DNA of 64,000 nt from Clostridiales bacterium (GTDB lineage Bacteria > Bacillota > Clostridia > Christensenellales > UBA1242), in contig SVIC01000003.1 of assembly GCA_015055515.1 (NCBI GenBank), forward strand, positions 15,435-79,434, read 5' to 3'. Every line of letters starts with the position of its first letter. Position 1 is the stretch's first letter. The notes below the pieces were generated by a model. The model saw only the letters and a program-made list of their open reading frames with translations, ran no database searches and was not told the DNA's origin. A program made the translations under genes and the position numbers. Below are positions 15,686 through 64,000 of this stretch, piece after piece.

Positions 15686-15762
15686 TGGTGGAGATAAAGA
15701 GATTCGAACTCTTGACCCCCTGCTTGCAAGGCAGGTGCTCTAGCCAGCTGAGCTATACCCCC
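15686..15762 (-). tRNA. tRNA-Ala (anticodon UGC), CCA encoded
   Basis: The reverse complement is GGGGGTATAGCTCAGCTGGCTAGAGCACCTGCCTTGCAAGCAGGGGGTCAAGAGTTCGAATCTCTTTATCTCCACCA. The G3:U70 identity pair is present, the anticodon loop is CTTGCAA, and all four stems pair. Confidence 0.95.
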
Positions 15763-24101: not shown

Positions 24102-24298
24102 TAATCTCTCCTAAGTATATTTTTACGTATTCTACAATATTATAATATTCAAGTCAAATCATTTTTAGGCTAAGAGAATTTTTTAATGCAACACATTTGC
24201 TAAATCATTCAAAAAAATCAAAAACTTACTTTTTTCATTTGGTCTTTTTTATTGCATTAAAGTATACTTAATGGCGATAAATAATTAAGGAGAAATAT

Positions 24299-25222: not shown

Positions 25223-25246
25223 TTTAGAAGAATTTTCAAATAATAC

Positions 25247-25273
25247 AAGAGTGGCAAATGTCACTCTTTTTTT
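25247..25273 (+). terminator. Rho-independent terminator of fba
   Basis: Stem AGAGTG/CACTCT (25248..25253 / 25262..25267) is followed by T7. Confidence 0.65.
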
Positions 25274-25408
25274 GTCCACAACGATACCATATAGAAAACC
25301 AACAGATAAATAAATTATTGCAAAATATACAAACATTAACTAAGCAATTAAAACAATTGCAAGAATAAAATATATAAATATATAAAAAATAAAGTATATA
25401 GTATTTAT

Positions 25409-25438
25409 TTGTCAAATTGTGACCAAATATGGTATCAT
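25409..25438 (+). promoter_or_regulatory. Candidate sigma-A promoter of the giant ORF (TTGTCA-18-TGgTATCAT)
   Basis: TTGTCA lies at 25409..25414, followed by an 18-nt spacer and an extended -10 with TATCAT at 25433..25438. It is about 40 nt upstream of the start and is preceded by a roughly 130-bp extremely AT-rich tract. Confidence 0.5.
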
Positions 25439-25476
25439 GATTATTGTAAAAAGTATGCAAATTACTTCGAAGAAAA

Positions 25477-31400: not shown

Positions 31401-34400
31401 ATACGCAACTAGCCAAGTATACTTCACTTATTTAACTAGTATAGATAGTTCTATACCTACTGCAGAATTCGATTATAAATATTATCCATTTGAAGATTTA
31501 AGTAAAACCGGATTCTATAACAATTATAAAATAAAAAATATTTCATACAATAGTTCGAAAAGCTGTTATGAGATAATATTTGTAGATGAAAAGGACAACC
31601 AAATTACACATAACTACAGTGCTTTGTCTACTAACAACTATAATGCTGATGGAGATGCAGTAAATGAACCAAATAGTACTTATCCATTTACTATTTCCCC
31701 TACAACAGCATCTAACAATGGTTGGAACAAAATAACAGCAACTTCTAATTACAATGTTGCAGGAGACCCAAATAGAAAGGTGTCCAATCTAATTAACGAT
31801 ATATCTGATACATCTATTAAATATTCTGGAGCTGGTCTATATGTATTTAGAAGAGTATATGTAGATTATGTAGATGCTACACAATATAGCAATGGCATAA
31901 CAATTGTCAATAAAGCAAAAGCTGAAGAACTGGATAAAGATAGTGCTGTAAGATACTATGTATATTATATTGACAGAAATTCTATAATAGATGTAACTAA
32001 CATGATAGGCTCTGATATAACACTAACATATGGTAACTATATTCATGCTGTAACAAACGACAATGAGAATAACTTAAGCATTGATAATAACTATGCCAAT
32101 GTATATGGCTATGACAGCATATCAATAGATGCTGTACAGCAATCCAGCACATCAAATAGTGTTCAGACTTATGTATCTAGCGATAGTACCAACAAGATAT
32201 ATATCTCTCTAGATATGCCTATGGATAAATACAATCAGCCTAGAGCAGTAGCATTTGCAAAAGAAACTGATTTTGCATTGTCTATGACCGAAGCTGATAA
32301 AGCAAATACTGAATCTATGCTACGTAAGTTCTACAACCTATCTGAGAATCAGAATATTACTGAAGCACAAATAAATGAATTTATTAACAACTTCCTTGGC
32401 AAATACATGTTCGATAATTACAACGGTTTTGCAAACGGAACATATAATAAAAATTTCCAATTGAACGTAACCTTAAAAAATGGAAACAATGCGATCATGG
32501 AAAATAATATTATCACAGAGAATAATTCCATATACTTCAAACAGTATTCTGCAACAACATTACAGACCTCAACTGTTTCATCTATTGATAGACAAAACTT
32601 TACTAATTATTTAAGAAATGATATTACTTCAATCATCCTTAATGATCCTTCCGGCGATGGTTACAACTTTGCTATATCAGACAGCTCATTATTTACAAGA
32701 AATAACGTTATAATATCTGAAGCAAACTCATTGAATATTAACAACATTAATATCGCACCTATGAAGCCTACAGGATCTGTAATAGGTAAAAACCCAAATA
32801 CTAAATATCTAACTGATACAGAGTCTGAGAACTATGTACAAAACTTGTTCCAAAATGATCAGTTAAAGAGTATGAAATATTATGTTGCTTCGGCAGATAG
32901 CATATACCCTAATTCTAACAACAGTACCTTAATATTCTTAATAGATAATGATATATTAACTAACCTTACAGCAACAACAAACCCTTACAATATTGTAATT
33001 AATAAATTTAGTGAAAATGGTACTAAAAGCACAATATTTACTAGTAGCCTAACATACGAGATAGTTAATGGCGAAGTTGTTCCAAAATTCACTGCCAATA
33101 ATGCAAATGCCTTCATTAGTAATGCAACGATAGATAATAAGGCTACAAAATGGGCAATAGTAGTATTTGACAAGACTGCAAAGAATGAACAATATAAGAA
33201 TATATTATCAAATGCTGATGACAATGCAACATACCAGATTACTATCCAGCACTATGGTAAAAAAGAAGATTATATAGACAAAGATGTCAAACAGAACATA
33301 GCATTCAGCGATACTCAAGAGATAACAATTGATCACATAAAACCAATAATTAACCAAATAAAATTAATGGAGCAAGACAAATTTATCTCAAAGAATTTTG
33401 CAAAAATAAAATCATCAATTGAAGCTCAGAATAACAATCTTGTATATAATGATATACAATCATACTACAACGACTTAATTAGTAGAATTTCTAGTGGTAC
33501 AATCACCAAGATTGGAGCACAAAAATATTTGAAAAATGTATATGATATATACCTTGAATGCTACAAGAACTTAATGGGTAAAGAAGATAATTTCTTAAAA
33601 ACATTTACCGATCAATTCGGAGAAAAAGTAAATTACTGGAATAACTATTATTTCACAGTAGATGATAACTTCGAATTCATAAGTGGACTTCCTAGCCTTA
33701 ACAATGAAGATGGTAACGGAATGGGACTGGATTGTTATAACAATATTTATTTTAGAAAAATATCAGATCTGACTAAATACAAATATTCAATAACAACAGA
33801 TGACTTTACATCAACTACTAGTTCAGATATTACTGGTCACAGCATATTCTATGATAACATTGCAGAGACCTATGACAGCAGCAATAACCCAACTATAGAA
33901 TCTGACACAACCTTCTATAAAATAAGCCACACAAACAACAAAAATTATAAATTATTTGGTGAATCTATCAAAGATCCTGGTTATTATGAAATAATAGAAC
34001 GTGATGAGGCTGGAAACTATAGCGTATACCTAGTACACTATAATAATAACGGTAACGAATATAAATACACTTATTCTAAGTTATTTAATGACAAAACAGA
34101 AGATGAAATCAACCTAAGCTCAACAAAAGTTAATGAGATTCTAGGTACTGGGCTGGCATTGTCTAATGCGAATACGGATAATGTCGCCGATATGTTCCGT
34201 GCAGAAATAGCCTATACATTCACGACTATAAAAGAAGATGGCACTGTTGATAGAGTATACAACAATACATCCTCACCTATTTATATTTATTCTACAATGA
34301 TGAACAACGCTGTAGATATATATTATGATCGTAAGAATGACAATATGATAGACATAGACTCTGATTTATTGCAGTCTATCACTGGAATTGTAGCACTTGA

Positions 34401-37242
34401 AAACACAAGTTTAGGTAATGAGATAATCAACAAAGCATTATCAAGAATAAAAGAAATACTGATGTATATATCTAATACTTACACTGATATAGCTCTTGAC
34501 TTTGAATACAGTATTAATATATATGACAAGGTATATGGTAATTATGTTATATCTTACAAATGCCCAGGAAAGCAGTTAGAGTTGGATATAAACAAAGGCG
34601 ATTATTCATTCAATGTTACAATACCTAACAACGAAGTAGGAAGAGCTACCAAGATTGTAAGCTTTAAGGCACGATACTCCAATAGTTCTGCCCCTATACA
34701 GCGTGACAAAAATGGCAACGAGATTCCTGACACTTCTAATAACAAACTTCCATTAAATTCTACTACTTATACATTTAACTATGCAGATGGATCTCAAACT
34801 CAAGGATCTGCTATCATTATTGAGACTATAGACAATTTCGGCAGAAACAAAATATATTATATTACTAACAAAAATGATAGGTTATATTATACCGAAATGA
34901 ACACTATAAAACACTATAATGATACTTATACAGATGATGAGATCAAGATAGTATATAATAGTGATCTATATAACGCAGTAATCATAGAGCAAGTAGATGA
35001 ATCTAATCAACTAACTATTACAACAAGATTAAATGCAAATAATAGTTATCCTATAGCAAATAATGATTATTTGAGATACGATGTCACAGATCTACCTACT
35101 TGGACTAGAAAAGATGACAAAGGAAATATAATATATACAGTATCTAGCGACAAATTATTAAATGAGACTGGTTATATTACTCTAACAATTAAGCAAAACA
35201 TAGATAAAAAATCGAAATTTATTATTTTATTCTTGGACAAGAGCACAATAACAAGTGAAACAACCATAAATGAGTTATACAAAAGTTATGTATCTTTCGT
35301 TAGCAAGCCTGAAGGAATATTATATAACGATGATACGAAGGTAACAATGTATACTTATCTTCCAGAAATCAAATTAATTAATAATAGCAATAGAGTAATT
35401 ACTACTTCTAAAACTATAAAAGATCAAAAAGAACTACTACTATTCATAGAACAATTAAAATACAGATTAGAATATAGTCAAGAGATATTGTTTAATCCAA
35501 GAATATCTATTGCAAAGAACAATATTCAATATGCTGTCATTCCTGAAGAATTAAGTGAAAACGTAAGCCTTGGCAATGGTACATACAGGCTTGTAATATC
35601 TAATGACCTAGGATATTATAGTGAAATAAATTTCAAGATAGAAATCCAAGAAAATATAGCAGACTATGCATTATATATTAATAATAATTTGATGCAAAAA
35701 TCTACATATATTAATACAGATGACGGTAAAATAGTGTATCACTATTATACTACCCTATTGGATGCAACAACTAAGCCGAAGATTAATATAATAACAAATT
35801 CTAACAACAACATTGCTTGCACAAAAATAGAAGATGCTGTAGTAGAAAACAGCAATGATTTGTATGAAACATATAAGGTACACAAGAAAGATAATCCTGA
35901 TGTAATAATAGAATATTTCACTATATATTATTTAGAGAAAGACAAATACAACTTTGTCGATGATAACGGTGGACAAATTGTAAAGATTAATAATAAGAAA
36001 TCATTCAATACCGCACAAGATATAGCATCTGTAAGCAGTTCTAAGAATGACAACAAACTATATATAATCTTTGCCAATACCATAAACGGAAACAACGATC
36101 ATACACAAGGCAATACTATATCACTAACCTATTATTACAATAATGCTTCGACTAAGACAGAAGAAATAAAAATAAATAAGTTAAACAAGTTCATAGAAGA
36201 TGGCAAAACTTATTATTACTATGAAATATCTGAAACTGGTTTACATAAATTTGTAGTAAGTGACCTTGCTGGACAAAGATTAAAATCTGGCAACAGAGAT
36301 TACTTCAATATAACTTTGATTAATAGCATAATATATGAAATCAAAGTTGATGAAGATAAATATATTCAAAATCTACAAAATTACATAACTAACAACGAAG
36401 TTGTTATAAGATTGCTAGATCAAGTAGGCAACACTAACCTATATGATATTATATATGATCAAATAAGAATAACTAGAAATGGTGAATTGTTAACAGACAT
36501 AAAACAAACAACTAAAAATGTATATACTTTCACTACTCCTGGATCATATGAAATACAAGTAAGTGCTAGTGATTCAAGCAATCCTAAGCCTATAACTCAT
36601 TCTATATACTTTACTATAGTAAATCCGAACATAGCATACAGTTCGTATACAATATCATCTGCAAAAGGCTACACAATTAAATCGGTAACAAAGAGATTAA
36701 ATAACACAGAGAATTCCAAGCCTACACCTATAAACGCTTTCAACAATTCTAATTCGTTACTAATTAGTTGTGCCGAGCATGGTGCTGGATATTATACCAT
36801 AACGGTTACAAAATATCTAGAAAGCATTAAGTCTGAAAAAGAATTTTCATTCAATGTATGGCTAAATGATAGAACTGAATCTAGTATAATTATAGCATCT
36901 ATTCCATTCGGAACAGAGACAACAGATACTATTACTATACGATATAACGCATCAAATATATATAATAATATAGGTGAATCTTTCATTAAGATAAATGGAA
37001 ATATTATAGACACTATTACAAAAGATAGCACCTCTGAAACTTCTACCTATAATATAACTGAAAAAGGTGTATATTGGGTAACAATAGAATCTGCTAATGG
37101 TCAAGTTATAGCTAGCTATAAATTAACCAAGAATGAACCACTAAATGCAACTGCCCAGATAATAATAATTGTTGTTGTTGTAGCAGTAATTGCTCTAGTA
37201 GTTATATTCATAATCTTGAGAAAGAAGACTAAGTTCAGATAA
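25477..37242 (+). CDS. Giant (3,921 aa) N/Y/T/I/D-rich cell-surface protein with an N-terminal signal peptide and a C-terminal TM anchor; function unknown
   Basis: A single uninterrupted 11,766-nt ORF. The second ATG at 25489 has the better RBS (GGAG 6 nt upstream). The signal peptide is IIAISLSIILAFVLSHIIFSTKTLA/EN. The C-terminus is AQIIIIVVVVAVIALVVIFIIL-RKKTKFR. Recurrent beta-sandwich-like module ends are present (G-x-Y-x-I/V ... D-x-AGN). I recognised no enzyme, LPXTG, SLH or YD/RHS motif. Confidence 0.85.
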   Translation: MEKNMINTNIKKTTGKNIIAISLSIILAFVLSHIIFSTKTLAENSTYMPDFIVATTNIRETNNYQNNAVDIIYEENSAGSFVMWANEYYNLRDNTLSQVPNYKQVISVDGDTNVASISDYYTYDAGTGKFTGLLELPEANKWYRYDDNGKLSPIGARLSKDNLTSAISMEDSRVDSKDSDVRKIIIDGKDVYIQVGEENKIYSKDYYYGYNYKSFKSEYSYKPITPSDSAEISYTYISDLTTDPISTSEHKYTYISNIFEKHTDTSGKFAYYNNSWMKVELCNADGIITNTTDDTYVILEKDGQLPKIWVSGSTYYYKDTNGDKKQLESQPEFYTYSIQNGLYCISGTEYLLLENENIDRFDGTKLTLTGNVELELDQLYTRVYINEPYLKIGANTEKTVEFVKLDNTDPANINFISGSISINKHLFSISYDNANIINYNGVWQIIEYCRADGGKLSNTTEKTNYVILEKDNNNTSVWGELNSNKYYYKDGANTKERTTNATNNALPTLYGYKLNSGLYSHKDYEYIPLKDAVITNISYDENTLKEIKVTTNTGRELTINNLSDNLYTNNYYYEIYKAVYGEDKNTILDYELYNYELKASDNTKGNFDSYQSFISTYFAEDNLDELYFLGTDGAYHELFNTVYANSAKEVITSTTSDIVLDNYKVQRDLYNSDIATTDNQNVENIYLSFGDIYYPNINDNSKNAFNIIITELSVNMTLTNSYYNEIPVIINEPIRQENINLSNDVTKQNCFWFQYLDLQNLRTYSGSNLSDTRIIEHSAGEYQIEITYNTYNIETGISSTSQNFSYSLIVDETSNKDSYPIINNTEYVEKDNNYPIYTYNFQSMNKPEIMFDASEYSMQYSYNYDEYNTDYNSALNIFKRDTVTKDTLVTYATATGTENTEQNIKYYQEHSIFTWVESGYINNIEVNRTHSRTKILANATIIEKPTNGKIQIVGATNVDIDKVAILEYTYYIDSPSNAFVNDNYSSLQFDKKIVSIVGYSTAENTYYIWHYITDIEKSKDDSFVSYNKVINEYITKISKPVNYRSYDNMYKFYNLDKTPATDYAKLEKGFASRKYDYYFDYEQLDFDYIITDEFSNLGEYVFEMGYVTSTKYSPSKTPYNTYNLHNISKDVIAIEPNFDPKGLVNLQQGTLNGGYNISIFGVKSYFNKYMSATSTTVQTELMLESENIYSDMTATINSINNTNKIEQMPQAGTTINNAGTSIGKVPNTNQVPIYFEYLCSYAYTGNISNSRIYRYPSFVYNDDNTCTIKNTNNYITSYFDKNSRPEDDGYYEIIIEYSYKNNDTNYESDKQYQVFAFVIDNSSPEVAYDTLKETIDSKEYKYLDWQSMASNNITNSIVRANWNTPNYFQYDIIPTITKENYSGVSSIYGSSDSTSTINAISGTNEEVFIHINETEKISLTGNADIVKNNGVIQYTDKAGLIAEKYYITKYDNAHLTKVPVFKLIVDQNANLDTILEQSKKEYYQTRILNNTLYPSDMYNAKIVDIINTIIQSGTSISFEFIGYKWQFMIYPTSTHLDEINKIQSSGSIWGSGNYLLKLTYGSSATSNITSRFVIDTLPISNVVARSVMLYNSGNIISKGFNGNCNFASGSNNLINEPFTLIYDSKTSGADITTYYRKISFKSTTIDKDYDRLYLADTTVGVLTDIELTASEDARWKKYTYNYNYGEAGSTVPTGNEFNPDSTSLYVFYLEDRAGNKANYYVLYDNSTPKYSVELSEKDKTSNNFNLYNIITDNTTLFWGNYKAIEVSGSLDIGYIINRANHINYQPTAIEMALKDIVAKSTNNTYLGASYKTFRKDNNKWEEISNADYSSGDKCFILIPLSNTTFNYSQTNADDKTEKQFIFNMLTGKINQTILSPTALDLAIANGLVANNATDTEKEAARNLIKRSPQGTYGFYGEIQYDYVIEDILGNSDGGFLWMNNDLTVAMAWMTNAKTDKELSNNDDLGVFAATDLSSAYATSQVYFTYLTSIDSSIPTAEFDYKYYPFEDLSKTGFYNNYKIKNISYNSSKSCYEIIFVDEKDNQITHNYSALSTNNYNADGDAVNEPNSTYPFTISPTTASNNGWNKITATSNYNVAGDPNRKVSNLINDISDTSIKYSGAGLYVFRRVYVDYVDATQYSNGITIVNKAKAEELDKDSAVRYYVYYIDRNSIIDVTNMIGSDITLTYGNYIHAVTNDNENNLSIDNNYANVYGYDSISIDAVQQSSTSNSVQTYVSSDSTNKIYISLDMPMDKYNQPRAVAFAKETDFALSMTEADKANTESMLRKFYNLSENQNITEAQINEFINNFLGKYMFDNYNGFANGTYNKNFQLNVTLKNGNNAIMENNIITENNSIYFKQYSATTLQTSTVSSIDRQNFTNYLRNDITSIILNDPSGDGYNFAISDSSLFTRNNVIISEANSLNINNINIAPMKPTGSVIGKNPNTKYLTDTESENYVQNLFQNDQLKSMKYYVASADSIYPNSNNSTLIFLIDNDILTNLTATTNPYNIVINKFSENGTKSTIFTSSLTYEIVNGEVVPKFTANNANAFISNATIDNKATKWAIVVFDKTAKNEQYKNILSNADDNATYQITIQHYGKKEDYIDKDVKQNIAFSDTQEITIDHIKPIINQIKLMEQDKFISKNFAKIKSSIEAQNNNLVYNDIQSYYNDLISRISSGTITKIGAQKYLKNVYDIYLECYKNLMGKEDNFLKTFTDQFGEKVNYWNNYYFTVDDNFEFISGLPSLNNEDGNGMGLDCYNNIYFRKISDLTKYKYSITTDDFTSTTSSDITGHSIFYDNIAETYDSSNNPTIESDTTFYKISHTNNKNYKLFGESIKDPGYYEIIERDEAGNYSVYLVHYNNNGNEYKYTYSKLFNDKTEDEINLSSTKVNEILGTGLALSNANTDNVADMFRAEIAYTFTTIKEDGTVDRVYNNTSSPIYIYSTMMNNAVDIYYDRKNDNMIDIDSDLLQSITGIVALENTSLGNEIINKALSRIKEILMYISNTYTDIALDFEYSINIYDKVYGNYVISYKCPGKQLELDINKGDYSFNVTIPNNEVGRATKIVSFKARYSNSSAPIQRDKNGNEIPDTSNNKLPLNSTTYTFNYADGSQTQGSAIIIETIDNFGRNKIYYITNKNDRLYYTEMNTIKHYNDTYTDDEIKIVYNSDLYNAVIIEQVDESNQLTITTRLNANNSYPIANNDYLRYDVTDLPTWTRKDDKGNIIYTVSSDKLLNETGYITLTIKQNIDKKSKFIILFLDKSTITSETTINELYKSYVSFVSKPEGILYNDDTKVTMYTYLPEIKLINNSNRVITTSKTIKDQKELLLFIEQLKYRLEYSQEILFNPRISIAKNNIQYAVIPEELSENVSLGNGTYRLVISNDLGYYSEINFKIEIQENIADYALYINNNLMQKSTYINTDDGKIVYHYYTTLLDATTKPKINIITNSNNNIACTKIEDAVVENSNDLYETYKVHKKDNPDVIIEYFTIYYLEKDKYNFVDDNGGQIVKINNKKSFNTAQDIASVSSSKNDNKLYIIFANTINGNNDHTQGNTISLTYYYNNASTKTEEIKINKLNKFIEDGKTYYYYEISETGLHKFVVSDLAGQRLKSGNRDYFNITLINSIIYEIKVDEDKYIQNLQNYITNNEVVIRLLDQVGNTNLYDIIYDQIRITRNGELLTDIKQTTKNVYTFTTPGSYEIQVSASDSSNPKPITHSIYFTIVNPNIAYSSYTISSAKGYTIKSVTKRLNNTENSKPTPINAFNNSNSLLISCAEHGAGYYTITVTKYLESIKSEKEFSFNVWLNDRTESSIIIASIPFGTETTDTITIRYNASNIYNNIGESFIKINGNIIDTITKDSTSETSTYNITEKGVYWVTIESANGQVIASYKLTKNEPLNATAQIIIIVVVVAVIALVVIFIILRKKTKFR

Positions 37243-54957: not shown

Positions 54958-56046
54958 TTATTTTTCTTTTTTTATCACAACCTCACACCTTTTATGTTTG
55001 AAATTGACTAAAATATCATATGATGATCTGTTTAATACTTTTGCCATGTCTGACAACGTAATCTTGTTATTATATTGCTCTCCCAATATCACCACTTCGC
55101 TACCTACATATACATTATCAACATTAGACACATCAACCATAAAACAATCCATACATATATTGCCTACAATTGGCGCTTTTTCACCATTTATTAACACATA
55201 GAACTTATTACTTAATCCTCTATTTATTCCATCCGCATATCCCATTGGAACAATCGCTATCTTAGACCTTTTGTTACATTTATATGTTCTATCGTAGCCT
55301 ACACATTGACCTTTTGCAACCGAATTAATCCCAATAACTCTACTCTTAATAGACAATACATTCTTTAACGCCAAGCCCTCCGCTCGTACATCACCATACA
55401 AATTTGCACCTACTCGCACCATACCCATTTGATATGTACTACTAAGCATAGTCGCAAAACTATTAGCACAATGCCTAATAATATACTTAGGTAAATTATG
55501 TACATATTCATTAAATATATCTTTTTGAATTGCGATATACTCAACATCATCTTTTTTTGTTGCGAAATGAGTATATACACCTTGCAAAATAATATTGTTG
55601 TTATGCTTTATTAATTTTAATGCCTTATTAAACTCTGATATTCTATCATACCCATATCTATTGAGTCCTGTATTAATCTTAATATGTATTTTTATAGTGC
55701 TATGCAAACCATCAATTAACGCCTTAAGATAGTTGTTATCTGAGATTGTAATTGTGAGATTATTAGCGCTACAAATATCTATATCATTAAGCGATACTGG
55801 GGCTAAGATTAGAATTGGTATACTATTATTCAATGCCCTAACCTCTAACCCCTCATCTATATTTGCAACAGCATAATAATCGACATACTCATCTATTATA
55901 GGTATAACATTCTTTACCCCCAAACCATATGCATTAGCCTTAACTACCGCACATAATTTTACCTTATCCTTCAGTAGTCTCTTAATAACACTTGCATTAC
56001 ACTTCAAATTATCTGCATCAATTACAAATTTATTAAAATATTCCAT
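54958..56046 (-). CDS. alr: Alanine racemase
   Basis: The 362-aa protein has the PLP-lysine motif AVVKANAYGLG and a C-terminal beta domain with the GYADG block. Confidence 0.92.
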   Translation of the reverse strand: MEYFNKFVIDADNLKCNASVIKRLLKDKVKLCAVVKANAYGLGVKNVIPIIDEYVDYYAVANIDEGLEVRALNNSIPILILAPVSLNDIDICSANNLTITISDNNYLKALIDGLHSTIKIHIKINTGLNRYGYDRISEFNKALKLIKHNNNIILQGVYTHFATKKDDVEYIAIQKDIFNEYVHNLPKYIIRHCANSFATMLSSTYQMGMVRVGANLYGDVRAEGLALKNVLSIKSRVIGINSVAKGQCVGYDRTYKCNKRSKIAIVPMGYADGINRGLSNKFYVLINGEKAPIVGNICMDCFMVDVSNVDNVYVGSEVVILGEQYNNKITLSDMAKVLNRSSYDILVNFKHKRCEVVIKKEK

Positions 56047-56118
56047 AATAAAATATATGCCTCAAATCAAGCGATTGATACAAAAAAATACAATTTGTAC
56101 AAAATATAATAAAAGACT

Positions 56119-56146
56119 TTGCAAGAATTAGGAATGCTGTTATACT
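56119..56146 (+). promoter_or_regulatory. Sigma-A promoter of the Rho-like gene (TTGCAA-16-TGtTATACT)
   Basis: TTGCAA lies at 56119..56124, followed by a 16-nt spacer and an extended -10 with TATACT at 56141..56146. Confidence 0.6.
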
Positions 56147-56175
56147 ATATATAAATATAATCGTAAGGAATAATT

Positions 56176-57309
56176 ATGGATCAAAAGGAATATGAACTAC
56201 AACTTAAAAGCCTAGAAAATATGGGTATTCACACCCTTAGGACTTTTGCCAGAGAGTGTGGTGTAAAGGCACCAACTACCCTAAAAAAAGAAGAACTAAT
56301 AGATCTAATAATGAAAATAAAAAAGGGAGAAATAGAGCCAGTAATTAGCAAAATGGGAAGAAAACCAAAAACACTTCCTGATTTTTCTTTTGCCACTTCA
56401 TCCAACATGGACTCTGGATTTCTATCTCTACATTCTCCTACAATATTGAGTAGCAATACACCTTGTCAAGTATTAGAATGCCAAGTAAAATTCAATGAAT
56501 TAAACAATCCAATTTTTAGATTAATAGAGAAAACTGGCAGAGTCGTGGACATACCAGTATTGCCATCTTTGCTTACTAAGCACAATCTTAAGAAAGACGA
56601 TTTAGTCACAGCAGAGATGAAGACATCTCCTGATGGATATAGTTATATAATTGGAGACATTATAACAATTAACGGCATCGATGCAACCAAATATCATAGC
56701 GATTTGTTTTATAATCTTGACAATGTACCTAACTTAATAGACTATTTAAGAATAGAAAACTTTGAGAAACATGAAGCTATAATGTATCAACCTAAGATAC
56801 TAAAAGGTAAATCTTGCTTCTATTACTATAAAGATGGCAAAAATTTGGCAAACTATATAACAGATTTTGCTAACGATATAAAAGAAGACAAGTTGCATAT
56901 AGTTATATTAAACGCCTCACACACACCTACTCCAAATATTAAAGATACTACTATATACAACATAGATTATAACAAGTCGTACGAAGAGATCTTCAAGGAT
57001 ATAATTGTTGCTAGAGAACATGTGAAAAATCTGTTCATAAGCAACCAAAAGGTCCTATTTATAATCAGTGAAATCGATGAATTGTTCAAGATCATAAATT
57101 ACAATATCACCAATACAATAAGTGATGATGTAGCACCAGACAGCCTAACCGAAGTAAGAAAACTGGTTAATTTATCTAAATACATAAGCAAACAACAGAA
57201 TTTAAGTGTTGTAACATTCTCTTCGTTTGCCACTGGCAAAAATTACAGAGATATATTAGTCTCTAACATCATACAGTATTTATACGAAGTCAAATTAGAA
57301 AGAAAATAA
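56176..57309 (+). CDS. Rho-like protein: Rho_N and Rho RNA-binding-like domains plus a RecA-like domain with degenerate Walker motifs, C-terminally shortened
   Basis: The N-terminus LENMGIHTLRTFARECGVKAPTTLKKEELIDLIMKI fits the Rho_N pattern. DIPVLPSLLTKHNLKKDDLVTAEMKTSPDGYSYIIGDIITINGID parallels E. coli Rho [43 protein letters not shown]. The P-loop position reads YYKDGKN (Rho: PPKAGKT). The Walker B position reads HIVILNASHTP (Rho: LMVLLIDERPE). Confidence 0.6.
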   Translation: MDQKEYELQLKSLENMGIHTLRTFARECGVKAPTTLKKEELIDLIMKIKKGEIEPVISKMGRKPKTLPDFSFATSSNMDSGFLSLHSPTILSSNTPCQVLECQVKFNELNNPIFRLIEKTGRVVDIPVLPSLLTKHNLKKDDLVTAEMKTSPDGYSYIIGDIITINGIDATKYHSDLFYNLDNVPNLIDYLRIENFEKHEAIMYQPKILKGKSCFYYYKDGKNLANYITDFANDIKEDKLHIVILNASHTPTPNIKDTTIYNIDYNKSYEEIFKDIIVAREHVKNLFISNQKVLFIISEIDELFKIINYNITNTISDDVAPDSLTEVRKLVNLSKYISKQQNLSVVTFSSFATGKNYRDILVSNIIQYLYEVKLERK

Positions 57310-57310
57310 A

Positions 57311-57340
57311 TAAGAAGATTGTACAAAAGCAATCTTCTTA
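57311..57340 (+). other. Strong hairpin without a proper U-tract between the Rho-like gene and the permease-like gene
   Basis: An 11-bp stem TAAGAAGATTG/CAATCTTCTTA with an 8-nt loop is followed by ATACTTTTAT. Confidence 0.6.
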
Positions 57341-57361
57341 ATACTTTTATAGAGGTACTCA

Positions 57362-58864
57362 ATGTTTATCAATTTAGGAAAAAAATTAAAGGAATCATTC
57401 TTATCCGTTATTCCTATATCCATTATTGTTCTCATATTTTCTATTACCCTATGCCCTCTTGATGTAGACACATATCTGTCTTTTGGCATAAGTGTAGTGC
57501 TATTAATTATAGGAATGGCGTTATTTACCATGGGAACAGATATATCGATGTCACAAATGGGAGAAAGTATAGGCAAAAGCTTATGCAAATCAAAAAAATT
57601 ATCTTTGATGTTAATTTGTTCAGCCTTTATTGGTTTTATTATTACATTTGCCGAACCCGATCTGGCCGTACTAGCCAAACAAATTAGTGACATGGGAATA
57701 CTGAAGCAAGAATATTTATTCATATCAGTAGTATCTATTGGCGTGGGCGTTTTTCTATTATTTGCAATACTTAAAGTAGTATTTAGATGGAAAATGTCTT
57801 ACATACTTGCAATTGGTTATTCTGTATTATTTATATTCTGTTTCCTAGTACCAGATTATATGATACCTATTGCATTTGATTCTGGCAGTGTAACCACAGG
57901 ACCAATATCTGTGCCGTTCTTAATATCTTTTGGACTAGGAATAGCATCAATCACATCTAGCAAGGATGATGACAATGCACTAGGATACATTGCCCTATCA
58001 TCGCTCGGACCAATTATCGCTGTAATGACACTAGGATTATTCTTGCCTAGGGATATCAATATAATACAACAAAGTACAGAAATAACTCACTCAGGCATTA
58101 ATGCAATACTAACAAACCTTACAGGATATCTACTGGATGTAGCAATCACCCTACTTCCCATAGTCATCATATTTGTTATATTCCAGATATTTATGTTAAA
58201 ATTGTCTAAAACAACAATCAAAAAAATTATCATTGGATTGATCTATACATATGTAGGAGTTGTATTGTTTTTAACAGGTGTCAATGCAGGATTCTTACCA
58301 ATTGCATCGAAACTGGGCAGTGTTATAGCAAGTGGCGATTTCAGTTGGATACTAATACCTTTAAGCATAGTATTGGGATACTTCATAATAGCGGCAGAGC
58401 CAGCAGTACACGTGTTAAAGAAACAAGTAGAAGAAGTAACAAATGGTGCAATAAAACAAAAAACTATTCAGACATTTGTGTCAATTGGTGTAGCAATATC
58501 AGTACTTCTTGCAATGTTAAAAACATTATATGATATTAACCTATTATACATATTGTTGCCTATATACATAATGGCGATTGTGTTATCATTTATTAATGGC
58601 AACCTATTTGTATCAATAGCTTTTGATGCAGGCGGAACAGCTACTGGAGCGATGGCTGTATCATTCATACTACCATTCATATCTGGAGTAGCAAGCGTAA
58701 TAGGCAACAACACAACCGGCTTCGGAACAATAGCATTAATCGCCGCAATGCCAATACTTACTCTACAAGTGCTAGGCTTAATGTACACAATAGCAACAAA
58801 GAAAAAAGACAGAAAGAAACGAAAGTCCAACAAAATCCATGTGGAAATTATCGAATTCGATTAA
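57362..58864 (+). CDS. Internally duplicated polytopic membrane protein (DUF1538-like permease)
   Basis: The 500-aa protein has two homologous halves visible by eye: FAEPDLAVLAKQ / AAEPAVHVLKKQ, and FDSGSVTTGPISVPFLISFGLGIAS / FDAGGTATGAMAVSFILPFISGVAS. The family name is from memory of this AEP/DxGxxxTG pattern. Confidence 0.7.
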   Translation: MFINLGKKLKESFLSVIPISIIVLIFSITLCPLDVDTYLSFGISVVLLIIGMALFTMGTDISMSQMGESIGKSLCKSKKLSLMLICSAFIGFIITFAEPDLAVLAKQISDMGILKQEYLFISVVSIGVGVFLLFAILKVVFRWKMSYILAIGYSVLFIFCFLVPDYMIPIAFDSGSVTTGPISVPFLISFGLGIASITSSKDDDNALGYIALSSLGPIIAVMTLGLFLPRDINIIQQSTEITHSGINAILTNLTGYLLDVAITLLPIVIIFVIFQIFMLKLSKTTIKKIIIGLIYTYVGVVLFLTGVNAGFLPIASKLGSVIASGDFSWILIPLSIVLGYFIIAAEPAVHVLKKQVEEVTNGAIKQKTIQTFVSIGVAISVLLAMLKTLYDINLLYILLPIYIMAIVLSFINGNLFVSIAFDAGGTATGAMAVSFILPFISGVASVIGNNTTGFGTIALIAAMPILTLQVLGLMYTIATKKKDRKKRKSNKIHVEIIEFD

Positions 58865-58874
58865 GGAGTGCGAC

Positions 58875-59219
58875 ATGAAGAACAAACATATTAACGCACC
58901 GTTCGAGATGCTAATAGCAATAGTAGAACGTGGCAAATCTAACAAAGTATCTGAAATATTGACTGCTCATGACTGCAACTATACCCTTACAACCATAGGT
59001 GAAGGAACTGCACAATCAGAAGTATCCGACATCTTCGGATTTGGAATTGTAGAAAGAGATGTTGTATGGGCTCTAGTAAATCCAATAATGTCTCAAAAAA
59101 TATTAGATGCATTAGATAAAACTTTAGAATTAAAACAACCTAGCAGAGGAATTGCTATGTGCATACCAATCAACGCCGCAACCAACCTAATGCTAGACTC
59201 GTTAGGAATTAATTATTAA
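58875..59219 (+). CDS. P-II-like signal-transduction protein, paralog 1
   Basis: The start is at ATG 58875 (AAGGAG RBS; the track's 58839 overlaps the upstream gene). The beta-alpha-beta pattern MLIAIVERGKSNKVSEIL...TIGEG... and the C-terminal SRGIAMCIPINA resemble GlnB (GDGKIFVLPVEE). Confidence 0.6.
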   Translation: MKNKHINAPFEMLIAIVERGKSNKVSEILTAHDCNYTLTTIGEGTAQSEVSDIFGFGIVERDVVWALVNPIMSQKILDALDKTLELKQPSRGIAMCIPINAATNLMLDSLGINY

Positions 59220-59229
59220 GGAGTATATA

Positions 59230-59565
59230 ATGGAAGAGAAGAATTATGATTTAATTATAACAATTGTTAATAAAGGTTATTCCGACTACGTAGTGCAAGC
59301 ATCAAGAGAAGCAGGAGCGACGGGCGGAACTATTATAAATGCATTAAGTTCTAACAGTAACGATACAGAGAAATTCCTGGGTATAACCATACAACCAGAA
59401 AAAGAAATAGTACTAACTGTAGTGGAATCAACTACTAAGAACAAAATAATGAAGGCAATAGTAGAGAATACAAACCTTGACACTATTGGAAGAGGCATGT
59501 GTTTTTCACTGCCAATATCCAAATTAACCGGCATCACCGCCCTAAATTCTAAAAACAAAAAATAA
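59230..59565 (+). CDS. P-II-like signal-transduction protein, paralog 2
   Basis: The 111-aa protein has LIITIVNKGYSDYVVQASREAGATGGTII and GRGMCFSLPISK, which match the P-II fold pattern (GlnB: EAIIKPFKLDDVKEAL..GITGMTV and GDGKIFVLPVEE). It has an AAGGAG RBS. Confidence 0.65.
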   Translation: MEEKNYDLIITIVNKGYSDYVVQASREAGATGGTIINALSSNSNDTEKFLGITIQPEKEIVLTVVESTTKNKIMKAIVENTNLDTIGRGMCFSLPISKLTGITALNSKNKK

Positions 59566-59580
59566 AAATATTTTAATATT

Positions 59581-59630
59581 AAAAATAAGGCCTTTTTATA
59601 CAAAAAATTATAAAAAGACCTTATTTTTTT
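59581..59630 (+). terminator. Terminator after the P-II pair
   Basis: A long AT-rich hairpin (arms 59584..59600 / 59609..59625, one C-A mismatch, 8-nt loop) runs into T7. Confidence 0.6.
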
Positions 59631-59691
59631 CGCAAAAAAAAGATATTTTATAAAAAAATAATATTTTTTTGAAAAACTTTGTTAAAACCCC

Positions 59692-59720
59692 TTCACAAAT
59701 GCACAAAACTGTGATAATAT
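59692..59720 (+). promoter_or_regulatory. Sigma-A promoter of the ABC exporter gene (TTCACA-17-TGaTAATAT)
   Basis: TTCACA lies at 59692..59697, followed by a 17-nt spacer and an extended -10 with TAATAT at 59715..59720. Confidence 0.55.
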
Positions 59721-59749
59721 GACATAATTTATTTTCGGAGCATCACAGA

Positions 59750-61525
59750 ATGAAAAATAGAAAAACAAAAGAAAAGAAAAATACATATTATTTTTTCAAA
59801 TCACTAGGCTATATTAAGCCATACAAAAGTAAAGCAATCATGTGTATTATTAGTTGTGCATTATTTGCAGGACTAAGTGTTTTTGTACCAATATATACAG
59901 AAAAGACACTGACTGCTTTTACAAGTGGCGATGGAACTGGACTACTAATTAGTGCTAGCCTACTACTATTATTCCAAGTTCTTAGTTCTCTATCTCACCT
60001 ACTACTATGGGGAAACGCTGCAGACAAATTAAAAGCAAGCATATCAAAAGATATAAGATATAACACACTAGATAGTATCTTAAAATTAAAGACTAAGAAT
60101 TTTGACTTATACGGAAGTGGCAGATTGGTCCAAGTAATATCTTCTGACACTAATTCGTTAGCATCAATCTACAACTCTCTAGTAGATGTATTCATGTCCA
60201 TCCTTAGCAATTTCGCCATTGTAATATACATATTTGCCAGCAACGTATTCTTAGGGTTATATTGTATTGTTGAATTCGCAGTAGTTGCATTAATATTCAG
60301 AATTAGATTAAAAATTAGACTAAAAGACCAAATTGAGCAAAAGAAAACAATGGATAAAAATACCAGTCTTGTAATGGAAACAATCAAAGGTGTAAGAGAT
60401 ATAAAGAACTACAATATACACGATTCTGTAATGGAAAAAGCAAACGAGTCACTTACCGCCCTACAAAACATTGAAGGAAAATTTGGTAGTAAACAATATA
60501 AATTATATAGAGCATCAATTATACTAAAAAATATTATGGCATTCCTATTTATTCCACTTGCACTATTCTTAATACGATTAGAAATGGCGACATTTGCAGT
60601 AGCATTCACTATATTTGTATTCCGTAATTCAATAACATCTCTTATAGATTGGTTCATGATGAGCTGGGAATACTTCAAAGATGGAGGAATGTATGCAAAA
60701 AGAATATTCGATGTTCTAAATGGATATGAAGAAGGATTTGAGAAATTCCCTAAGAAAGACAATTTCAAAGCTTTGCCAGAGAACATTGATATTGATTTTC
60801 AAAACTTAAACTTTTCATACAACGGAGTAGATAAAGTGCTAAACGACTTCACTCTGCACGTAGAACATGGCACAAAGATAGCCTTTGTTAGTGCTAGTGG
60901 CGGTGGCAAAAGTACGCTATTAAAACTAATTAATAAGACATACGATGTAGATAGAGGACAAATATTTATTGGCGGACAAGATATATGTGACTTCTCAAAA
61001 GAAACCCTAAGGAATATAATAACTATTGTGCCTCAAGAGCCGTACATATTTAATTTCTCCATATTAGACAACCTAAAAATAATTAAGCCAGACGCAACAA
61101 AAGAAGAAATAGAAGATGCTTGCAAAAAAGCCCAAATACATGACTACATAATGTCTCTACCTAAGAAATATAACACAATGCTGGGCGAAGGCGGATCTAG
61201 ATTCTCTGGCGGACAAAAACAAAGATTGTCTATCGCCAGAGCATTATTAAAAGACAGTCCAATACTAATATTCGACGAAGCCACTAGTGCCCTTGATAAC
61301 GAAAACCAAAATGCAGTAAAAGAAGTCGTTGACAATATTGGCAACGATAAAATTGTAATCACTGTTGCGCATAGACTATCAACCATTGTCGATGCAGACA
61401 AGATATATTTTATGAAAAACGGTCAAATTGTCGCTGGAGGCACTCATAGAGAAATGTTAAAGACTTGCGAAGAATACAAGTGCTTATATCGATATGAGAA
61501 TGCAGTAGCAGAAGATAATGAGTAA
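59750..61525 (+). CDS. ABC exporter half-transporter (N-terminal 6-TM domain plus C-terminal ATPase; MsbA/multidrug type)
   Basis: The 591-aa protein has Walker A SASGGGKST, signature FSGGQKQRLSIARAL and Walker B ILIFDEATSALD. Confidence 0.9.
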   Translation: MKNRKTKEKKNTYYFFKSLGYIKPYKSKAIMCIISCALFAGLSVFVPIYTEKTLTAFTSGDGTGLLISASLLLLFQVLSSLSHLLLWGNAADKLKASISKDIRYNTLDSILKLKTKNFDLYGSGRLVQVISSDTNSLASIYNSLVDVFMSILSNFAIVIYIFASNVFLGLYCIVEFAVVALIFRIRLKIRLKDQIEQKKTMDKNTSLVMETIKGVRDIKNYNIHDSVMEKANESLTALQNIEGKFGSKQYKLYRASIILKNIMAFLFIPLALFLIRLEMATFAVAFTIFVFRNSITSLIDWFMMSWEYFKDGGMYAKRIFDVLNGYEEGFEKFPKKDNFKALPENIDIDFQNLNFSYNGVDKVLNDFTLHVEHGTKIAFVSASGGGKSTLLKLINKTYDVDRGQIFIGGQDICDFSKETLRNIITIVPQEPYIFNFSILDNLKIIKPDATKEEIEDACKKAQIHDYIMSLPKKYNTMLGEGGSRFSGGQKQRLSIARALLKDSPILIFDEATSALDNENQNAVKEVVDNIGNDKIVITVAHRLSTIVDADKIYFMKNGQIVAGGTHREMLKTCEEYKCLYRYENAVAEDNE

Positions 61526-61568
61526 AAAAAATCTTAAGCAGGAAATTATCCTTGCTTAAGATTTTTTT
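61524..61568. terminator. Bidirectional terminator between the ABC exporter and the convergent dnaI-like gene
   Basis: The sequence is A8-ATCTTAAGCAGG-aaattat-CCTTGCTTAAGAT-T7. The right arm overlaps the last codons of the dnaI-like gene. Confidence 0.7.
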
Positions 61569-62490
61569 GTCTTAGATCTCTACCATCTATCATTATAGTA
61601 AGTGATACATTGTTATCAAGTAGCCTACTACACAGTCTATAATCATATCTCTCCCTAATCTCATCAAGAGTCAGATTTGATGTGATAACAGTCTTCTTCG
61701 ATGCCAGGTTTCTCTCGTTGATCAGCATTATCAGCATTGGTATTGTTACATTATTCAGCATTTGCTCACAACCTAGATCATCTATACATAGCATTTCACA
61801 CTCCAACAGTGGTGCAATTATACTATTCTTCTCTGCCATGTTAGCGGTATGATAATTTAGAAAAGTCTGATTTAGCTTGAACGCTGACAGATATATAACA
61901 TATCTATGATTATCCAAAGCAAAATTTGCCATACATTCCATAAGGTGTGTTTTACCTACGCCTACCCCACCTAAGATAGTAAAATTATTATACTTAGTAA
62001 TATCAATCTTCTCTACAAATTTCTTTGCCCTGTCGTATACTTGCCTCATATAATCAGGATTGTCAAATATATCATAATTCACATTATCAAATGATGCCTC
62101 TACTTCTCTAGACCCATCAACGCTCATAATGTTACTTGTGGCTCTGGCATTGACACAATCGCATATTCCATTACCCTTCATACCAGTGTCTTTACACTCT
62201 TTGCACCAATATTTTGGCACAAAATCTGCCACATTAAAATTATTCTTTTTTAATAGTTTTAATAGTTTTTCTCTGGTTTTTTCCACCTTATCTGATTGCT
62301 TTGCAATATCTTTTCCTTCCAGTTCCATTACTGCAATGTCTCTCTTCATATCCTTGATATTGTCATACAATTCTTTTATTTCTTCAATCTCTAAAGCACT
62401 TAACAACTTCTCATCAGCAATTCTCTCTACCTTGGATTTGTGTGCTTTGATTTCATCTATTGCCATCTGTTGTATTTGATAATAATTCAT
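61546..62490 (-). CDS. DnaC/DnaI-like AAA+ helicase loader
   Basis: The protein has Walker A GGVGVGKTHL, Walker B LCIDDLG and an N-terminal Cys cluster CKECKDTGMKGNGICDC. The start is at ATG 62490 (GGAGAT RBS within the end of the upstream gene). Confidence 0.8.
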   Translation of the reverse strand: MNYYQIQQMAIDEIKAHKSKVERIADEKLLSALEIEEIKELYDNIKDMKRDIAVMELEGKDIAKQSDKVEKTREKLLKLLKKNNFNVADFVPKYWCKECKDTGMKGNGICDCVNARATSNIMSVDGSREVEASFDNVNYDIFDNPDYMRQVYDRAKKFVEKIDITKYNNFTILGGVGVGKTHLMECMANFALDNHRYVIYLSAFKLNQTFLNYHTANMAEKNSIIAPLLECEMLCIDDLGCEQMLNNVTIPMLIMLINERNLASKKTVITSNLTLDEIRERYDYRLCSRLLDNNVSLTIMIDGRDLRQKNLKQG

Positions 62491-62491
62491 A

Positions 62492-63943
62492 TTATATCTC
62501 CACTTCAAATAGATTATTGATTAGGCTATTTAACTGCGTCTTGGAATATTCTGTACCCTTGGCCTTTTCTGCCGTAGGCTTAGGATTAGAATATGGCTTC
62601 TTATCTGAAAGCATTGACTTCGCCTCTTCCACTGTTGTAATCTTCTTGGAATAAAATGAAGATAACAATTTGTTCATATATTGCATAGGCATAGACATTC
62701 CCACACTCTTCTCTATTGCAAAATCTATCAGTTCTTCGCTAATACCCCATGTATACAGCCATACCCTATACATATTTCTATCACTACTATTTACGCACCT
62801 ATCTAGTGCAAGTTTTCCAAGGATAACCTGTATACTCTCATCATCTTTTGCTAAATCATACAGATACTCATCAATAGCGTCAGATGTAAGTAGGCCAAGC
62901 TTGAACAATTGATTCATCTTACCATTCATACCCTCTAGCGTTCTAATACTGAACTTAAAGCAATAATTTGCCAATTTTATAATAGCGTCTGGCTCAAACC
63001 CTAGATTAATCCAAGGCGCAATATAATTATCTACAACAGTCTCTACGCTATCATACCTTAAGCCCAGCCCTTTGCATGTAGTTCTAGCCAAATCATATAG
63101 GGAATCTAGGTTATTGAAATAATCATCAATCTCTTGTGTAGTATTTAGCTTTAGAGTATAACACTTGCCAACCAACGCGTCTAGTTTATTAAATCCCGCA
63201 CCCTTGGCCTTGGCTTTCTTTGCTAAGTGCACAATTATATCTTGTTGCATCTCAAGATTGTTCTTCCACTCTAAGAACAATCTATATTCTTCTTCACTAG
63301 CTCTTCTTCTAATACCAAGTGTCTTAAGAACAAGACTGATATCTTCGCCATTTCTAGCCAAATCCATTAGCCTCTCTTCTACCTGATCACATGTAAGTAT
63401 TCCATCAAATATCCAATTCTTTGCCACTGTCAAAATATAACTAGATGCTATATTCGCCCCTTTCATATCAACGCAATATTTTATAATCATAATTAGCGCA
63501 TCTGGCTCTATCTTCTTATTCTCAATTAAGTAATAATACTCCTGGTACTCTGATGGCGAAATCATCCTTTTTTCCAACAATTCTTGTGCCTTAATATTAA
63601 ATGACTGGTATTTATCAGGATTAAACTTCTTTAACTGTGATGTAGCATTCTTAATAGGCAAATATCTTACTTCTAGAGGGTCTTTTGTAATTATATTAAC
63701 TAGATTTAATTCTTCCCAGTACATAAATGCACTAATTACATCATCCTCTGTATAATTCAACGCCTTAGAAATATCTGATAGATTATTATCAAGACTCTCT
63801 GGATTGTTGCACTTGTATAATCCATACAAGTATACCTTAACGCAGTTCTCGGGTGCATTCAACATAAAATCATTGATAAATACGTTCTCTATACTAGTCT
63901 GATTCTTGGAAATATATTCCGATGAATATTTACAACAACTCAT
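62492..63943 (-). CDS. DnaD/DnaB-type replication initiation (helicase-loading) protein
   Basis: The 483-aa helical protein lies directly upstream of, and is translationally coupled to, the loader gene, as with Bacillus dnaB-dnaI. It has repeated DnaD-like segments. The start is at ATG 63943 (GGAGGG RBS). The family call is by context and general pattern only. Confidence 0.55.
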   Translation of the reverse strand: MSCCKYSSEYISKNQTSIENVFINDFMLNAPENCVKVYLYGLYKCNNPESLDNNLSDISKALNYTEDDVISAFMYWEELNLVNIITKDPLEVRYLPIKNATSQLKKFNPDKYQSFNIKAQELLEKRMISPSEYQEYYYLIENKKIEPDALIMIIKYCVDMKGANIASSYILTVAKNWIFDGILTCDQVEERLMDLARNGEDISLVLKTLGIRRRASEEEYRLFLEWKNNLEMQQDIIVHLAKKAKAKGAGFNKLDALVGKCYTLKLNTTQEIDDYFNNLDSLYDLARTTCKGLGLRYDSVETVVDNYIAPWINLGFEPDAIIKLANYCFKFSIRTLEGMNGKMNQLFKLGLLTSDAIDEYLYDLAKDDESIQVILGKLALDRCVNSSDRNMYRVWLYTWGISEELIDFAIEKSVGMSMPMQYMNKLLSSFYSKKITTVEEAKSMLSDKKPYSNPKPTAEKAKGTEYSKTQLNSLINNLFEVEI

Positions 63944-64000
63944 ATTTATGCCCTCCAACTACATTACTTTATGTGCATATTATACATTATCCTCTTAAAT

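Follow-up and report, generated by a model that had tools for sequence, protein, structure and literature searches.

A family of Rho-derived proteins that lack the motifs of the ATPase motor in uncultured Clostridia

Introduction

The transcription terminator Rho is viewed as an obligate ATP motor in the shape of a ring, and genome surveys score bacteria as 'Rho-positive' or 'Rho-negative' by domain detection. Here we analyze a Rho-like protein of 377 amino acids (aa) encoded in a 64,000-nucleotide stretch of contig SVIC01000003.1 (hereafter the window), from a metagenome-assembled genome (MAG) of a Clostridiales bacterium. The protein is identical to MBE5735136.1, which is annotated in that MAG as 'hypothetical protein E7361_01660'. 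Two described groups of sequences provide the nearest points of reference. First, in Moreira et al. 2024, 'Rho-like' sequences from 421 species form an operational category (PMC11347177); the window protein belongs in this bin because only its Rho_N domain passes the Pfam thresholds. Second, the additional Rho of Group B/Type 4 (D'Heygere 2013, as cited in PMC11347177) is missing the N-terminal domain and keeps the catalytic and bicyclomycin-pocket residues. A literature search that included the main text of PMC11347177 and a 2025 review of Rho returned no naturally ATPase-dead Rho derivatives of full architecture, and none at the rho locus.

Homology to Rho

An original prediction, made from the letters of the window and a list of open reading frames (ORFs), had called the protein a Rho paralog on the strength of a Rho_N helix-hairpin and of alignments by eye in the OB-fold and RecA-like regions. 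Profiles and predicted structures bear out this kinship, and on both kinds of evidence the protein's homology to Rho is genuine and spans the entire chain. In a Pfam scan Rho_N (PF07498) matches aa 13-47 with 29.6 bits against a gathering threshold of 24.9 (E 6.7e-7); it is the only match, and Rho_RNA_bind (PF07497) does not score. The equivalog models for Rho remain below their cutoffs: TIGR00767 places aa 9-158 on Rho positions 2-111 with 24.1 bits (cutoff 509), NF006886 scores 22.4 bits (cutoff 315), and together they reach aa 158 and 172, or the first ~111-126 positions of Rho. A single-sequence phmmer search of the PDB gave no significant Rho match, and profiles and structure were therefore needed for the central and C-terminal parts.

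A profile of the nine closest homologs (31-73% identity) retrieves Thermotoga Rho (3l0o) from the PDB with E 5.2e-9, aligning aa 124-365 with Thermotoga Rho residues 85-338, and a 26-member profile retrieves all solved Rho structures with E values of 1e-26 to 3.8e-37, profile positions 104-378 lying on Rho ~47-340. In the AlphaFold2 model of the protein (predicted local distance difference test, pLDDT, 70; predicted template modeling score, pTM, 0.61), three N-terminal helices are followed by disorder at aa 58-94, then by an OB fold with five strands and by an alpha/beta domain; when the full model is compared with the PDB by Foldseek, the best 50 matches are all Rho (top E 2e-13). Modeled alone, the C-terminal domain (aa 195-377; pLDDT 74, pTM 0.78) matches Rho at ranks 1-43 with template modeling (TM) scores of 0.62-0.76 and root-mean-square deviations of ~3.5-4 Å, and the first match other than Rho, a type III secretion ATPase, is found at rank 44. 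The significant similarity to Rho thus extends through the central and C-terminal parts by the two profile searches as well as by structure, and the register of the by-eye alignments of the OB and RecA-like regions was essentially right.

Residues were mapped by mafft alignments bridged through intermediate family members, with which the two HMM-PDB alignments agree. We used this route because hmmalign to a canonical-Rho hidden Markov model (HMM) left the C-terminal domain of the closest subfamily unaligned. The motifs of the E. coli Rho reference sequence are numbered as expected, and alignments made with it agree with those made with the PDB sequences. The features located in this way are listed in Table 1, together with the flanking signals and the short relatives discussed below.

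Table 1. Features of the Rho-like gene and its product in window coordinates, and loci of short relatives in other assemblies
Feature	Position	Strand	Remarks
Promoter-like site, TTGCAA-16 nt-TATACT with a TG extension before the -10	56119-56146	+	9/12 matches
Ribosome-binding site AAGGA	56165-56169	+	6 nt 5' of the ATG
Rho-like ORF, 377 aa	56176-57309	+	predicted Rho-derived pseudo-ATPase
Rho_N helix-hairpin, aa 13-47	56212-56316	+	PF07498; three helices, pLDDT ~80
Linker, aa 58-94, predicted disordered, fast-evolving	56347-56457	+	pLDDT <50; between Rho_N and OB
Basic motif M-G-R-K-P-K, aa 60-65	56353-56370	+	G61 and R62 invariant in the 26-member alignment
OB fold, aa 97-170, homolog of the primary RNA-binding domain in Rho	56464-56685	+	five strands in the model; alignments
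RecA-like core, aa 208-373, to the equivalent of E. coli Rho residue ~345	56797-57294	+	profiles against PDB Rho; domain model
Degenerate P-loop Y-K-D-G-K-N-L-A, aa 218-225 (Rho P-P-K-A-G-K-T)	56827-56850	+	alignments
Strand IVILNASHTPT, aa 242-252 (Rho LMVLLIDERPE)	56899-56931	+	catalytic-Glu/Arg-valve strand
Walker B strand and next helix, VLFIISEIDELFKIINYN, aa 293-310	57052-57105	+	alignments; D265 = S298
Shortened Q-loop equivalent, aa 311-324	57106-57147	+	SGKxLTGG signature gone; D317 and P321 conserved
12-bp hairpin right behind the stop codon, then AUACUUUUAU	57311-57340	+	-14.1 kcal/mol, z -6.6
N-terminal-only proteins	L012:411-797, L016:2139-2516, L017:242-544, L018:7965-8300		
N-terminal-only proteins	L019:7860-8264, L025:966-1301, L029:7329-7793, L032:7881-8324		

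The ATPase core

What is left of the Rho motor in this protein? In all four alignments the Rho residues G183-K184-T185 fall on N223-L224-A225, and the protein's own 'GK' lies two residues upstream. At this position close homologs vary, with DNKD, DKEY, DAKN, DPNN, DNNT, and the like, and the pattern GxxxxGK[ST] has no match anywhere in the 377 residues. In the strand that carries the catalytic Glu of Rho, D210 is equivalent to S248, the catalytic E211 to H249, and the Arg-valve residue R212 to T250. Similarly, the Walker B sequence of Rho, LLD265SITR, aligns with FIIS298EIDE, and close homologs have Ser, Gly, Thr, Asn, or Cys at the position of the Asp. The R-loop region reads ATGKNY versus DTGSKM, and homologs show no conservation there. 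The best conservation within the C-terminal domain runs from the Walker B strand through the next helix into the counterpart of the Q-loop, a region that would face the pore. Finally, the chain ends just past the strand equivalent to GNMELHL, near E. coli residue 345, and Rho runs to residue 419; the Arg finger (R366) is absent because the C-terminal ~72-75 residues are truncated. In Rho, the C-terminal subdomain builds much of the subunit interface and of the ATP site.

Because the P-loop, the catalytic Glu, the Arg valve, the Walker B Asp, the Q-loop signature, and the C-terminal subdomain have all been lost, binding and hydrolysis of ATP in the style of Rho are not expected. Judged by its sequence, the protein cannot be a Rho-type ATPase motor or RNA translocase. 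The original prediction had come to the same view of ATP hydrolysis, and every catalytic determinant tested is indeed missing; nor does the Walker A pattern occur elsewhere in the protein. Three of its details are to be amended. It was correct in regarding the P-loop as substituted, but in its register, GKN for GKT, the Rho motif was placed on the upstream GK and not on NLA. Its alignment of ILNASHTP with LLIDERPE holds, but the label Walker B does not apply to that strand and belongs to FIIS298EIDE. Likewise, the C-terminus is early as described, but the shortfall against E. coli Rho exceeds the ~60 residues that had been estimated.

The family and its selection

In an exhaustive profile search, 1027 cluster representatives match at E<=1e-3 and 173 at E<=1e-10. 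The family became visible in this way; a word-indexed protein search had given only four homologs. We examined a set of 153 proteins, made up of the best 150 of the 1027 profile matches and three close homologs from the word-indexed search, of which 93 measure 330-400 aa and a further 38 measure 401-500 aa. Among the best 150 matches, an aligned P-loop GK[ST] is found in only five of 131 near-full-length members, and the Arg finger in only one of them. Distant members score for Pfam Rho_RNA_bind and ATP-synt_ab, and single motifs persist in some of the proteins. For example, P0145 keeps the Q- and R-loops and reads GKM, DES, and LLS, and P0134 keeps DERPE and D265 and has no P-loop; other members keep no motif. 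The proteins form a graded series, which begins with full-length members that have partial motifs (P0134, P0145) and passes through motif-less and C-terminally truncated members to N-terminal-only proteins of 100-150 aa. All named members are 'hypothetical proteins' of uncultured Clostridia, and by a genome scan the family occurs in gut and rumen MAGs of Christensenellales and Clostridia. There is, then, a family of more than 100 sequence clusters that combines the Rho_N hairpin, a GR(K/P)PK motif, an OB fold, and a RecA-like core without a P-loop, and many of its members end early, behind the strand equivalent to GNMELHL.

A phage or defence origin of the family was considered and rejected: PHROGs gave Rho_N-type matches only and PADLOC gave nothing.

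The gene is under purifying selection in all of its domains. Two orthologs that are 95% identical (loci L002 and L005; synonymous divergence, dS, 0.26) have a ratio of nonsynonymous to synonymous divergence (dN/dS) of 0.08 overall; by domain it is 0.08 for the RecA-like part, ~0 for the OB fold, and 0.13 for the N-terminus. When the window gene is compared with that of L003 (72% identity), the linker is the sole relaxed segment, with a dN/dS of 0.38 versus 0.04 overall. Intact ORFs of similar length are found down to 31% identity. Since this selection persists despite the lost ATPase, some role other than burning ATP is to be expected. A decaying pseudogene or a chance ORF without function would agree with the loss of all catalytic motifs and with an evolution faster than that of the neighboring genes, and we regard it as hardly credible: the reading frame is intact over deep divergence, and promoter-like, ribosome-binding, and terminator-like signals are in place. 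The dN/dS between L002 and L005 effectively refutes it.

The N-terminal module, linker, and OB fold

Across the family, conservation is highest in the N-terminal hairpin and the basic GR(K/P)PK motif. The Rho_N hairpin has the invariant residues L21, R22, A25, R26, G29, V30, P33, T34, K37, and K38, and across 26 sequences of the family R22, A25, R26, G29, P33, G61, and R62 do not vary; GR[KRP]P occurs within the first 120 aa of 108 of the 153 family proteins. The linker that follows the hairpin sits where the 'Type 2' Rho proteins carry an insertion region (for the concept of insertion regions, see PMC11347177).

The fold of the OB domain is kept, and in the alignments the canonical pyrimidine pocket is mostly replaced. 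GFGFLR of Rho has become NNPIFR, and P127 stands in the place of Y80, as a Pro does in most of the subfamily. Of the E. coli primary-site residues (F62, F64, R66, Y80, E108, and Y110), what is left is a Tyr near Y110 (Y157, which does not vary within the subfamily) and, near R66, a basic residue. The 'intact RNA-binding-like domain' of the original prediction is therefore intact as a fold and not in its pocket, and it does not match Rho_RNA_bind.

Could the N-terminal module instead serve to bind DNA? The protein would then be a nucleoid-associated protein, in which a SAP/LEM-like hairpin and an AT-hook-like GRKPK act on AT-rich DNA and the remainder is a scaffold. The hairpin and GR(K/P)PK are the most conserved elements and are also found alone in the proteins of 100-150 aa, and the genome is AT-rich (32-37% GC). 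We nevertheless hold this to be improbable, in view of the presence of the same module on the clade's canonical, RNA-directed Rho and of the equally strong selection on the OB and RecA-like parts.

Canonical Rho of the clade and the rho slot

A stringent scan of genomes with the N-terminal pattern retrieved 30 loci from 30 different assemblies, with one such gene in each. In 11 of the 30 loci the gene encodes a canonical Rho, 49-59% identical to E. coli Rho and with all motifs intact; the canonical-Rho loci with the same N-terminal module are L014, L015, L020, L021, L023, L027, L028, L030, L031, and L033. The signature common to the canonical and the degenerate proteins is LRxxxRxxGVK(S/A)PTxxKK ... 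GExxP ... (K/R)GR(P/K)PK, which in the canonical consensus ends in SKRGRPPK. Because this signature is shared, including SKRGRPPK, the Rho-like protein appears likely to derive from the clade's own 'Type 2' Rho.

Two of the canonical rho genes lie downstream of (veg-sipL-)spoIIR-sleB-ypeB (L015:7980-9440 and L020:7971-9476). The same slot is occupied by ATPase-degenerate genes in three other assemblies, at L024:4257-5327 (356 aa), L026:5274-6437 (387 aa), and L035:10001-11416 (P0051, 471 aa), which suggests that in at least some lineages the degenerate gene is rho itself, decayed in place, and not an extra copy. A further eight loci encode proteins of 100-154 aa with little beyond the Rho_N hairpin and GR(P/K)PK (Table 1), among them a 128-aa protein directly after veg in L012. 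When these eight loci were searched with E. coli Rho by tblastn, no OB or ATPase remnant was found behind the short genes.

The window itself contains no canonical rho, and none of the best 120 of 8000 canonical-Rho profile matches has an E7361 locus tag. The ORFs of the canonical-rho loci have no homologs in the window, and the window therefore does not cover an emptied rho locus.

These observations bear on two accounts of what the protein does in its genome. In the first, it acts beside a canonical Rho as an antagonist or modulator, either by poisoning Rho through mixed oligomers or by competing for rut RNA or for the site on RNA polymerase, with less Rho-dependent termination as the outcome. 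The clade-specific N-terminal module that it has in common with canonical Rho is consistent with such a role, and related Christensenellaceae MAGs do encode canonical Rho. Furthermore, the locus of the window clade, with the gene between alr and a DUF1538 gene, differs from the canonical rho slot of the relatives and would fit a duplicate copy. We consider this account unlikely, however. No canonical rho lies within the 64 kb, the two proteins were in no case seen together in one genome, the 30 motif-bearing loci are from 30 different assemblies, the C-terminal subdomain for the subunit interface and ATP site is missing, and the protein evolves far faster than expected of a partner-locked subunit. 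A paralog that antagonizes Rho is unproven because degenerate forms fill the canonical rho slot in related lineages.

In the second account, the protein is the sole Rho descendant in its genome: motor termination has been lost, as in ~30% of Bacillota, and a motor-independent function of the N-terminal/OB scaffold has been kept. Rho loss is common in Bacillota (PMC11347177), and the series of shortened proteins, at the end of which the N-terminal-only gene of L012 adjoins veg, is what such a course would leave behind. Given the shared spoIIR-sleB-ypeB slot and the single gene per assembly, replacement fits at least as well as co-existence. However, the gene of the window clade is outside that slot, a stringent pattern scan could miss a divergent second copy, and MAGs are incomplete. 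We therefore offer replacement as a tentative account only.

Expression signals and neighboring genes

The gene is preceded by a ribosome-binding site and, further upstream, by a promoter-like site (Table 1). In the AT-rich 129 bp between alr and the divergently oriented Rho-like gene, sites of this kind are no more frequent than in shuffled sequences, and it is for this reason that placement is what supports the site. Behind the stop codon, the original prediction had described a hairpin without a U-tract. The hairpin is followed by a T-rich tail and was scored as terminator-like in a scan that found three such elements versus 0.6 expected; it is likely an intrinsic terminator, weak or bidirectional, that separates the Rho-like gene from the DUF1538 permease gene. 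Rfam gave no RNA element near the Rho-like gene. The sole Rfam matches at the gathering threshold in the window are two tRNA genes on the minus strand (15447-15520 and 15689-15762).

In the window and in the related loci L001-L010, rsmD and alr on the minus strand are followed by the Rho-like gene, the DUF1538 (UmpA/UmpB-like) gene, and two small ORFs. The original prediction had noted the position of the gene directly upstream of this permease cluster, and the conserved order of alr, Rho-like gene, DUF1538, and two small ORFs could be read to mean that the protein is a dedicated regulator of the downstream antiporter-like operon. We find this very improbable. L001-L010 are collinear over the whole fetched region (>10 kb), a hairpin separates the two genes, and the neighbors of distant family members are unrelated (MazF, MetRS, ABC-F, GreA, and sporulation genes). 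The linkage to DUF1538 is thus unspecific, because close relatives are collinear throughout and distant members have other neighbors. Over the same region, neighbor proteins are 54-92% identical and the Rho-like proteins 31-49%, so the Rho-like protein evolves fast relative to its neighbors.

Several other features of the neighborhood may be recorded. The DUF1538 protein (500 aa; region 57362-59565, plus strand) has a weak likeness to both UmpA/UmpB Na,Li,K/H+ antiporter subunits, as if these were fused. The two small ORFs after it encode 126 and 111 aa, the first overlapping the end of the permease gene by 26 nt; the cluster had been labeled 'P-II', a name that is not confirmed, for neither product has a Pfam match at E<=1e-5 or an NCBIfam match at E<=1e-3. 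In MAG SIG413, a MazF/PemK toxin gene (L013:7563-7910) lies immediately upstream of a 352-aa member of the Rho-like family. At 25477-37242 (plus strand) the window has an ORF of 3921 aa, the first 1508 aa of which have no NCBIfam match; some of its segments share ~30% similarity with ORFs of 2321 and 2424 aa that adjoin the degenerate Rho genes in L024 and L035. At 61546-63958 (minus strand) an IstB/DnaA-like ATPase (320 aa) adjoins a DnaB_2-domain protein (488 aa), and the two resemble the helicase-loader pair that Firmicutes have in DnaI and a DnaB/DnaD-type protein. Finally, AT skew tracks the coding strand, with values of ~+0.13 to +0.20 where large genes are on the plus strand (24001-36000 and 56001-60000) and ~zero or negative values elsewhere, and the coding strands of the window are purine-rich. 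Such strand bias has been linked to avoidance of Rho-dependent termination (PMC13323073) and could bear on whether the genome keeps an active Rho.

Discussion

What might a Rho homolog do without the motor? We lean, with confidence a little better than even, toward the view that the window protein is a Rho-derived pseudoenzyme that acts as a non-motor factor binding nucleic acid and/or RNA polymerase. We propose that nucleic acid (RNA being the most likely), RNA polymerase, or both would be bound by the conserved N-terminal hairpin together with the basic motif and the OB module. The RecA-like domain, degenerate as it is, would in turn serve as a scaffold for oligomerization or for the binding of a partner. 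Two observations on other Rho proteins are relevant to this proposal. In atypical Rho proteins, affinity for RNA is increased by insertion regions rich in Arg (PMC11347177), and the open, catalytically inactive form of E. coli Rho can bind RNA polymerase (reviewed in PMC12360218).

Four points weigh against this proposal. First, RNA binding, if there is any, is by sequence not Rho-like in detail because the residues of the pyrimidine pocket are mostly replaced. Second, the helix hairpin and the AT-hook-like GRKPK could bind DNA in place of RNA. Third, the loss of the C-terminal subdomain may prevent the formation of a ring. Fourth, the AlphaFold models are moderately confident (pLDDT 70-74) and were built on an alignment of four sequences.

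A widespread family of this kind matters for how genomes are scored. Some genomes that count as Rho-less, or as 'Rho-like' with an N-terminal domain only, keep a full but motor-dead Rho scaffold, and this changes how 'Rho-negative' Clostridia should be read. The family members could be unrecognized transcription regulators in the Christensenellales, which are abundant in gut and rumen. They are also natural separation-of-function variants, and as such could be used to test roles of the N-terminal and OB modules on RNA and RNA polymerase that do not depend on the motor. Such motor-independent roles are debated between the 'stand-by' and 'catch-up' models of termination.

Beyond the single protein, we raise, as a speculation that we hold to be less probable than its opposite, the idea that in a sizeable set of uncultured gut and rumen Clostridia rho itself was converted into a non-motor protein and was not simply lost or duplicated. 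If this is true, the Rho scaffold, and especially the N-terminal hairpin with the basic motif, has a conserved function that is independent of ATP. A candidate for this function is a 'stand-by'-like role, bound to RNA polymerase or RNA, that would have outlived the helicase activity.

How does the window protein compare with the systems that are known? With Rho itself (the E. coli, Thermotoga, and M. tuberculosis structures; TIGR00767), it has in common the order of domains, namely the N-terminal hairpin, the OB fold, and the RecA-like core. In contrast to Rho, it has no catalytic motifs, its Q-loop is shortened, its C-terminus is ~72-75 residues short, and other residues stand in place of GFGFLR and Y80. 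In MAGs of Clostridia and Christensenellaceae, canonical 'Type 2' Rho bears the same N-terminal signature and a disordered insertion before the OB fold, but keeps every catalytic motif and, at the ten loci named above, is 50-59% identical to E. coli Rho. Proteins with Rho_N only, such as plant RHON1 and the cyanobacterial DUF4912 proteins (PMC13613805), likewise reuse the Rho hairpin outside of the motor; these have neither an OB fold nor a RecA-like domain, whereas the window protein keeps both. The Group B/Type 4 second Rho is, like it, the product of a divergent rho-related gene, which is additional in some genomes, and yet the two follow opposite patterns, for in the window protein the N-terminal domain was kept and the catalytic residues were lost. 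Finally, with respect to the 'Rho-like' bin as it is defined by Moreira et al. (PMC11347177), the part of the window protein that escapes detection consists of a degenerate OB fold and the ATPase core of Rho.

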